A DNA stretch of 64,000 nucleotides from Escherichia coli (GTDB lineage: Bacteria; Pseudomonadota; Gammaproteobacteria; Enterobacterales; Enterobacteriaceae), in NCBI RefSeq assembly GCF_003334385.1, contig NZ_QOWN01000002.1; one strand, 5' to 3'. The number at the start of each line of letters is the position of its first letter. Within the stretch, counting starts at the first letter, position 1. Shown here in pieces: positions 55,117-58,100 of the stretch. Position numbers: made by a program.

Positions 55117-58100
55117 TCAACATATACGTTAAACCTTTGTCGCATAATTCTGAGGTTTAGGGATCTTCCTGGTTCCCTTATCAACGCATCGAGAACGTCT
55201 ACCCTTAAAGGACGTTGAACCTGAAGGGAGAAAAACGATGTCTCATTTAAAAGACCCGACCACGCAGTATTACACTGGTGAATATCCCAAACAGAAACAA
55301 CCGACGCCAGGCATCCAGGCGAAGATGACACCGGTACCGGATTGCGGCGAGAAAACCTATGTTGGTAGCGGTCGCCTGAAAGATCGTAAAGCACTGGTGA
55401 CAGGGGGCGATTCCGGAATAGGTCGCGCTGCCGCCATCGCTTACGCGCGTGAAGGGGCTGACGTGGCGATCAGTTATCTTCCCGTGGAAGAAGAAGACGC
55501 TCAGGATGTGAAAAAGATCATTGAAGAATGCGGACGCAAAGCCGTTCTGCTGCCAAGCGATTTAAGCGATGAGAAATTTGCCCGTTCGCTGGTTCACGAA
55601 GCGCACAAGGCGTTAGGCGGGCTGGATATTATGGCGCTGGTCGCCGGGAAACAGGTTGCCATTCCGGATATTGCAGACCTCACCAGCGAACAGTTTCAAA
55701 AGACCTTTGCCATTAACGTTTTCGCGCTGTTCTGGCTAACCCAGGAAGCGATCCCCCTGCTACCGAAAGGTACAAGTATCATCACCACTTCGTCAATCCA
55801 GGCATACCAGCCAAGTCCGCATTTACTGGACTATGCGGCTACGAAGGCGGCGATTCTGAACTACAGCCGTGGCTTGGCAAAACAGGTCGCGGAGAAAGGT
55901 ATTCGGGTGAATATTGTCGCGCCAGGCCCGATCTGGACAGCACTGCAAATTTCCGGCGGACAAACGCAGGATAAGATCCCGCAGTTTGGTCAGCAAACGC
56001 CGATGAAACGTGCGGGGCAACCGGCGGAACTGGCCCCTGTATATGTTTATCTGGCAAGTCAGGAGTCGAGCTACGTCACCGCAGAAGTGCACGGCGTGTG
56101 CGGCGGCGAGCATTTAGGTTAAAAAAATGCCCGGTTGTGAAAAGCAACCGGGCATCATTGTGAATTCACTCTTACCTGATGTGGCGAAAACGCCTTATCC
56201 GCCTACAAACGCATGAAGATTCAACATGTTGCAATAGATTTTGTAGGCCTGATAAGCGTAGCGCATCAGGCATTGAGCACCTAATGCCGGATGCGTCGTG
56301 AACGCCTTATCCGGCCTACAAACGCACGAAGATTCAACATGTTGCAATAGATTTTGTAGGCCTGATGAGCGTAGCGCATCAGGCAATTCTACTTTACTTC
56401 GCTTTGGCGGTTTCTTCGCCGACCAGACCTATCTTCAGGTAACCCGCCTGATGCAGCGTATCCATTACCTTCATCAACGTCTCGTAATCGACGGTTTTGT
56501 CCGCTCGGAAGAAGATGGTGGTGTCTTTCTTGCCTTCGGTTAACGCATTCAACGCCGTAATCATTGTTTCATCGGTGACCGGATCGTTACCGATAAACAT
56601 CGAGTTGTCTGCCTTCACCGACAGATAAACCGGTTTTTCCGGGCGCGGCTGCGGCGTGCTGGTAGAAGCAGGCAAGTTCACCTTCACATCTACCGTCGCT
56701 AACGGTGCCGCCACCATAAAGATAATCAGCAGAACCAACATCACGTCGATAAACGGCGTCACGTTGATATCATGCATTTCGCCGTTATCGTCGAGGTTTT
56801 CGTTAAGATGCATTGCCATCGGATATTATCCTGCGCGTAATTTTTGTGCGACACGAACCGGATGCGCAGCGGCGCTGGCTTCCAGATCCAGGTCACGGCT
56901 TTGCAGCAACAATACCTGCGCTGCAACATCACCCAGCATCGCTTTAAAGCCGCCAATCTGGCGTGCAAATACGTTATAGATAACGACCGCAGGAATCGCT
57001 GCCACGAGGCCGATTGCCGTTGCTAACAGAGCTTCTGCGATACCCGGCGCAACGACTGCCAGGTTAGTGGTCTGCGTTTGCGCGATACCAATAAAGCTGT
57101 TCATGATGCCCCAGACCGTACCAAACAGACCAACGAACGGAGAAATCGCGCCGATGGTTGCCAGATAGCCGTTACCGCGGCCCATTTGACGACCCACTGC
57201 GGCGACCCGACGCTCCAGACGGAAGCTGGTACGTTCTTTAATACCTTCGTTATCGTCGCTGCCTTCTGACAGTTCCAGCTCATTCTGCGCTTCATTGAGC
57301 AAATGCAGGCTTAAGCTTTTGCTACCAAAATCAGCGGCGATATCGTTGGCCTGGTTTAAGGAACGCGCTTCAGCCAGCAGTTGCTGCTCGCGCTTAAGGC
57401 GACGCTTCTGATTGAAGAACTCTACGCTCTTACTGAAGAAGATTGCCCAGGTGACTACGGAGGCCAAAATAAGCCCAATCATCACGCACTTAACGACAAT
57501 ATCGGCGTGCTGATACATACCCCAGACGGAAAGGTCCGTCTGCATTAAATTATTACCCACTGTGTATCTCCAGGACGCAAGTCACAAAATCTGCGCATAA
57601 TAATATCAAAACGACGTCGAATTGATAGTCGTTCTCATTACTATTTGCATACTGCCGTACCTTTGCTTTCTTTTCCTTGCGTTTACGCAGTAAAAAAGTC
57701 ACCAGCACGCCATTTGCGAAAATTTTCTGCTTTATGCCAATTCTTCAGGATGCGCCCGCGAATATTCATGCTAGTTTAGACATCCAGACGTATAAAAACA
57801 GGAATCCCGACATGGCGGACAAAAAGCTTGATACTCAACTGGTGAATGCAGGACGCAGCAAAAAATACACTCTCGGCGCGGTAAATAGCGTGATTCAGCG
57901 CGCTTCTTCGCTGGTCTTTGACAGTGTAGAAGCCAAAAAACACGCGACACGTAATCGCGCCAATGGAGAGTTGTTCTATGGACGGCGCGGAACGTTAACC
58001 CATTTCTCCTTACAACAAGCGATGTGTGAACTGGAAGGTGGCGCAGGCTGCGTGCTATTTCCCTGCGGGGCGGCAGCGGTTGCTAATTCCATTCTTGCTT

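Follow-up and report, generated by a model that had tools for sequence, protein, structure and literature searches.

A Fur operator and a MetJ operator, both already known, in the divergent exbB–metC spacer of Escherichia coli

The spacer that separates the divergently transcribed genes exbB and metC of Escherichia coli very probably contains two repressor operators that are independent of each other and have been characterised before, each serving one of the two divergent promoters: a Fur inverted repeat for exbB and a pair of tandem MetJ metboxes for metC. The matches, their uniqueness and their conservation are observed here, starting from a 64,000-nucleotide stretch of the E. coli chromosome (hereafter the window); binding in vitro and regulon membership are taken from the literature, and the positions of the promoters are predicted. 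Both operators are already known, the same nucleotides having been described and tested before, and nothing in them is new.

The locus and its genes

A first-pass annotation of the window had named the two genes exbB and metC and had described them as divergent. Open reading frames, RefSeq annotation and matches to E. coli genomes all bear this out. A 601-bp query taken around the spacer was found, at 95-100% identity, in 5,423 of 5,426 complete E. coli genomes, in which the neighbouring genes are annotated as exbB and metC. The spacer itself covers positions 57561-57811 and is 251 bp long (Table 1). In the coordinates of NC_000913.3, exbB lies at 3151250-3151984 on the minus strand and metC starts at 3152236 on the plus strand; a window position is obtained by subtracting 3,094,424 from the NC_000913.3 position.

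Two observations were made on the annotation of this neighbourhood. In many RefSeq E. coli genomes, the ExbB protein WP_000527844.1 carries the name 'tol-pal system-associated acyl-CoA thioesterase', while the name given to the same protein in NC_000913.3 is 'Ton complex subunit ExbB'. The former is a name of YbgC and not of ExbB, and its presence on WP_000527844.1 looks like an annotation error. In the yghA-exbD spacer (56123-56393), a hairpin terminator at 56128-56155 is found together with repeated REP/BIME-like units, and the Rfam family naRNA4 (RF02564) matches positions 56246-56316 on the minus strand with 61 bits (gathering score 59.5). For the exbB–metC spacer, the same Rfam search, which covered positions 56000-58200, gave no match to any RNA family, and the reading of this spacer as a riboswitch, a leader or a small RNA was rejected on that account.

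Table 1. Features of the exbB–metC region, in window positions
Feature	Positions	Strand	Remarks
exbB coding sequence	56826-57560	-	GTG start at 57560; open reading frame list and RefSeq annotation
Candidate extended -10 of the exbB promoter, TGATATTAT	57600-57608	-	predicted; TGnTATGAT in Erwiniaceae
Fur operator: 9-1-9 inverted repeat for a single dimer, ATTGATAGTCGTTCTCATT	57621-57639		centre at 57630
19-mer of the first-pass annotation, GATAGTCGTTCTCATTACT, in the classical GATAATGATAATCATTATC register	57624-57642		16 bp overlap with the 9-1-9 site
Conserved flank ACTATTTrCAT beside the Fur site	57640-57650		possible second-dimer hexamers GCAAAT-AGTAAT (exbB strand), predicted
Candidate extended -10 of the metC promoter, TGCTAGTTT	57769-57777	+	predicted; abuts the first metbox on its upstream side
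Two tandem MetJ metboxes, AGACATCC and AGACGTAT	57778-57793		end 18 bp before the metC ATG
metC coding sequence	57812-58999	+	ATG at 57812; RefSeq annotation and open reading frame

The Fur operator of exbB

The first-pass annotation had proposed a Fur box at 57624-57642 and had regarded it as the weaker, hand-aligned match of the pair. A site is present, and in the right place, but its register has to be moved by 3 bp, to 57621-57639. As a description of the classical count, "weaker" was fair, for the proposed 19-mer, when aligned in the classical 19-bp register, agrees with the consensus at 12 of 19 positions on the plus strand and at 13 of 19 on the minus strand. As many as 101 positions of the window reach at least 12/19, and 19 positions reach at least 13/19. 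Since 101 positions do as well, the hand alignment taken alone is not above chance. The centre of the classical alignment is 3 bp off that of the 9-1-9 dimer, which places the centre of 57624-57642 3 bp too far to the right, and this 19-mer receives -13 bits when it is scored as a 9-1-9 site.

For scoring in the 9-1-9 register, a symmetrised log-odds matrix was built from 16 footprinted or gel-shifted E. coli sites, from which exbB was excluded: fhuA, yahA, fepA-fes, fepD-entS, entC, gpmA, oppA, nohA, fadD, yoeA, cir, ryhB, sodA, fecA, fecI and fhuF. The conversion of each training site from old to new coordinates was checked against its stated distance from the gene start, and all agree; the 16 19-mers can be aligned without gaps to AATGATAATnATTATCATT. 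Leave-one-out scores of these known sites range from 15.9 to 29.4 bits. With this matrix, the repeat at 57621-57639 reaches 20.0 bits, a strong score that lies within the range of proven Fur sites and ranks first among the 63,982 positions of the window, the runner-up having 9.4 bits. Scores of 20 bits or more came up in 3 of 200 shuffled windows and in 1 of 2000 shuffled versions of the intergenic region. The repeat also has two mismatches to the ChIP-exo consensus TGAnAATnATTcTCA, and no other position of the window comes within two mismatches of it. Its 7-1-7 core, TGATAGTcGTTCTCA, occupies positions 57623-57637 (core motif TGATAATnATTATCA), and the exbB start codon follows 70 bp downstream of the centre. 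The Fur site at exbB is real, and stronger than the first-pass annotation had judged.

Other Fur-like sequences were seen in the window. The best classical match (16/19, GATACTGATAATCATTGCC) is at 5309-5327, inside the 3' coding end of ansB; because it is intragenic and the 9-1-9 matrix gives it no more than 5.5 bits, it is probably a chance match or a weak intragenic site. Upstream of hybO, at 51921-51951, classical matches of 13, 14 and 12 of 19 follow each other in phase, in 6-bp steps, and positions 51924-51942 are given 7.65 bits by the matrix. A published Fur ChIP-exo peak of hybO maps to window positions 52062-52074 and adjoins GAATTATTCTCA (region 52062-52088). It is possible that the matches upstream of hybO constitute a weak Fur cluster.

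A 'Fur box' at exbB was reportedly described by Eick-Helmerich and Braun in 1989. Chen et al. (2007, NAR 35:6762, PMC2189734) located the Fur site of exbB at position 3150076 of U00096.2, -70 from the start codon, with 19.1 bits. This position maps exactly to the centre of the repeat described above (57630). The locus and the nucleotides are the same, and the two scores, 19.1 and 20.0 bits, do not differ in substance, whereas the coordinates of the first-pass annotation follow the earlier, classical 19-bp register and lie 3 bp further to the right. Chen et al. also showed that an exbB oligonucleotide is gel-shifted by 150 nM Fur, and that a Fur box previously claimed to precede exbD gives no gel shift (PMC2189734). 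In the work of Gao (2023, PMC10164565), exbB and exbD are both among the 36 genes that make up the core Fur regulon of nine E. coli strains, their derepression in delta-fur mutants amounts to a log2 fold change of 1.9-5.5 across the nine strains, and in MG1655 and W3110 a Fur ChIP-exo peak has been attributed to exbB. The iron control of exbBD, with which the proposed Fur box had been said to be consistent, is supported both by the gel shift (PMC2189734) and by membership of the core regulon (PMC10164565).

The MetJ operator of metC

The first-pass annotation had called the met-boxes at 57778-57793 a clear match, and the description holds. The 16-mer AGACATCCAGACGTAT is found at precisely these positions. 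It was scored with the information weight matrix of Augustus & Spicer (2011, BMC Genomics 12:558, Table 3; PMC3228920), a MetJ operator being taken as at least two contiguous, in-phase 8-bp boxes that resemble AGACGTCT, with at least 3.15 bits per box (one quarter of the consensus score) and at least 12.58 bits for the array (the consensus score). The two boxes obtain 8.96 and 9.96 bits, that is 18.92 bits together, which passes both thresholds, and they form the sole array in the 64-kb window to do so. Dinucleotide shuffles of the window (n = 200) contained on average 0.59 passing arrays; the best of these had 18.1 bits, and 18.92 bits was reached in none of the 200. No third metbox was found upstream of the two boxes of E. 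coli metC, where GCTAGTTT scores -9.4 bits with the same matrix. The array is situated near the start of a gene of the methionine pathway, directly 3' of a conserved TGnTA extended -10 motif. Matrix scoring, which the first-pass annotation had proposed as the check for both sites, has thus been carried out, and both come out well above threshold (18.92 bits for MetJ and 20.0 bits for Fur).

This operator is one of the known training operators of Augustus & Spicer (PMC3228920). Their Table S1 lists the same 16-mer for metC (b3008) of E. coli K-12, with two boxes, 18.92 bits and a distance of 18 bp from the start codon; agacatccagacgtat is identical in the two and no difference was found. A 400-bp fragment carrying the metC operator of E. 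coli was positive in a MetJ gel shift and was also studied in a lacZ assay (PMC3228920), in line with the MetJ control of metC that the first-pass annotation had taken as known. The metC operator resembles the other E. coli operators metB/J (4 boxes, 31.2 bits), metE/R (3 boxes, 21.08 bits) and metK (3 boxes, 14.97 bits) in being made of tandem, in-phase 8-bp repeats similar to AGACGTCT and in the closeness of these repeats to the translation start. It differs from them in having two boxes, the fewest that can function, with a high score per box (9.46 bits).

Conservation of the two operators

Related exbB loci were collected with a degenerate DNA pattern placed in the 5' coding region of the gene. 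This gave 120 loci from distinct species, in 95 of which metC is divergently adjacent; 82 of these have clean spacers. The Fur site scores at least 15 bits in 81 of the 82 species, and at least 18 bits in 80, at a distance of 68-84 bp from the exbB start. The genera in which it occurs are Escherichia, Citrobacter, Salmonella, Enterobacter, Kosakonia, Lelliottia, Buttiauxella, Cedecea, Pantoea, Erwinia and Tatumella. Identity over the 18 specified bases is 99.9% in 56 Enterobacteriaceae-like loci and 96% in 25 Erwiniaceae-like loci, against 66% and 33%, respectively, over the remainder of the spacer. The central base varies freely (A in 35 species, C in 34 and G in 13). Conservation of the 18 bases around a variable centre independently fixes the register of the Fur site at centre 57630.

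Of the 82 loci, 56 have a metbox array, in every case 16-22 bp before the ATG. All Enterobacteriaceae-like loci have them with the exception of one Buttiauxella, and none was found in the Erwinia, Pantoea and Tatumella loci among the 82. Within the Enterobacteriaceae, the columns of the metboxes are 91% identical. The published count, 81 of 119 Enterobacteriales (PMC3228920), agrees with the one obtained here.

Candidate promoters and proposed mode of repression

Two candidate extended -10 motifs of the TGnTAnnnT type point to the core promoters. TGATATTAT, read from 57608 to 57600, is the sole such motif on the minus strand of the spacer; it is 96% conserved in the one clade and 79% in the other, and the motif survives the substitutions. 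TGCTAGTTT is its sole counterpart on the plus strand; both clades retain its TGnTA core, species that have no metboxes included. Over the 82 species both motifs are conserved, and substitutions leave them intact. No -35 consensus accompanies either motif. A generic scan for sigma-70 promoters and terminators over positions 57400-57950 gave no match, and the data of two Cappable-seq papers list no transcription start for exbB or metC, whether by gene or by coordinate. Judging by the sequence, the two motifs are likely to serve as core promoters for exbB and metC.

The Fur site lies about 12 bp upstream of the conserved candidate -10 of exbB. If the promoters are correctly placed, it would cover about -28 to -46 of exbB, and the metboxes would follow the metC -10 without a gap and extend across the start site. 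Both operators would then show an occlusion geometry of the classical kind; since we infer the promoter positions, this geometry is likewise a predicted one. In the mechanism that we propose, Fe2+-Fur bound to the 9-1-9 repeat would cover the -35 and spacer region of the exbB promoter and, in iron-replete cells, would block RNA polymerase, leading to repression of exbBD. Two SAM-bound MetJ dimers would bind cooperatively to the tandem metboxes, over the presumed metC start, and metC would be repressed when methionine and SAM are plentiful. The Fur and MetJ sites, some 150 bp apart, would act separately.

Extent of the Fur operator

Whether Fur binds exbB as a single dimer bears on the flank of the site that faces metC. 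The flank at 57640-57650 is conserved in both clades, and a second dimer might sit on it, so that the operator, an array of hexamers resembling GATAAT, would reach as far as about 57650. On the exbB strand, such an array would read GCAAAT-AGTAAT-GAGAAC-G-ACTATC, of which the 19-mer of the first-pass annotation would be the middle. Two published observations agree with this larger operator. Chen et al. report three walkers over 31 bp at exbB (PMC2189734), as opposed to the single positive position obtained here, and the MG1655 ChIP-exo peak of exbB (U00096.2 3150091-3150113; PMC10164565) is shifted towards the flank. This peak maps to window positions 57645-57667, that is beside the 9-1-9 site and not overlapping it, beginning 5 bp past it on the metC side, and the conserved flank partly underlies it. 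However, no Fur-like sequence above 0 bits is present under the peak, and the matrix is negative at centres 57624, 57636 and 57642 (-14.6, -9.1 and -2.6 bits). The flank could alternatively be a -35 or UP element, or the site of another factor. An operator of more than one dimer, arranged as such an array of hexamers, is a serious possibility which we nevertheless consider somewhat improbable.

A third conserved block

Another conserved block, TTCCTTGCGyTTACGCAGkAAAA, is present in the spacer at 57674-57696. It is conserved in the Enterobacteriaceae-like loci and is not alignable in Erwiniaceae, and the palindrome TGCGnTTACGCA lies within it. Read on the minus strand from 57686 to 57672, GTAAACGCAAGGAAA agrees with the CpxR box at 9 of 10 positions. 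The reading as a CpxR box was not adopted: the pattern occurs 2 times in the window, no more often than chance would give (3.06 expected), and in most species GTAAG stands in place of GTAAA. Both metC and exbB were among the CpxR candidates of a 2022 screen, with changes in qRT-PCR (PMC9600279). That the block is a third, uncurated regulatory element, a putative site for CpxR or for another factor which would couple envelope stress to exbBD and/or metC, can be put forward only tentatively, and we think it unlikely.

Independence of the two operators

The two sites share a single 251-bp spacer, and one could imagine that this common divergent region makes them shared operators, Fur acting also on metC and/or MetJ also on exbB. 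The fragment used for exbB is indeed gel-shifted by MetJ, since the metC boxes are inside it (PMC3228920). Nevertheless, expression of exbB-lacZ has already been reported to be unchanged in a delta-metJ strain, and exbB, in spite of the common spacer, does not come under MetJ control in vivo (PMC3228920); the candidate -10 of metC lies about 140 bp downstream of the centre of the Fur site. Moreover, Erwiniaceae keep the Fur site and have no metboxes, showing that the two operators evolve independently, which also argues against sharing. We regard shared control as very unlikely and retain two operators that act each on its own gene.

Least credible of all, and effectively already refuted, is the notion that the Fur-like sequence is an AT-rich chance match without function, the iron control of exbBD being indirect or exerted elsewhere, for instance at the box before exbD: in its favour are the classical count of 12-13/19 only, which 101 window positions equal, and an earlier model, that of McHugh et al., without a site at exbB (cited in PMC2189734), but the score of 20.0 bits in the 9-1-9 register is unique in the window, the gel shift was positive for exbB and negative for the region upstream of exbD (PMC2189734), and it is exactly the specified positions that are near-perfectly conserved in the 82 species.

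Conclusions

For E. coli K-12, both operators already belong to textbook or curated knowledge, and the relevance of the present analysis lies mainly in the quality of annotation. Counting agreements with the classical 19-bp Fur consensus does not separate the exbB site from the background; the 9-1-9 matrix does. Across the family boundary, the Fur site of exbB, which is found in both Enterobacteriaceae and Erwiniaceae, is older and more widely kept than the MetJ control of metC, which is found in Enterobacteriaceae only.
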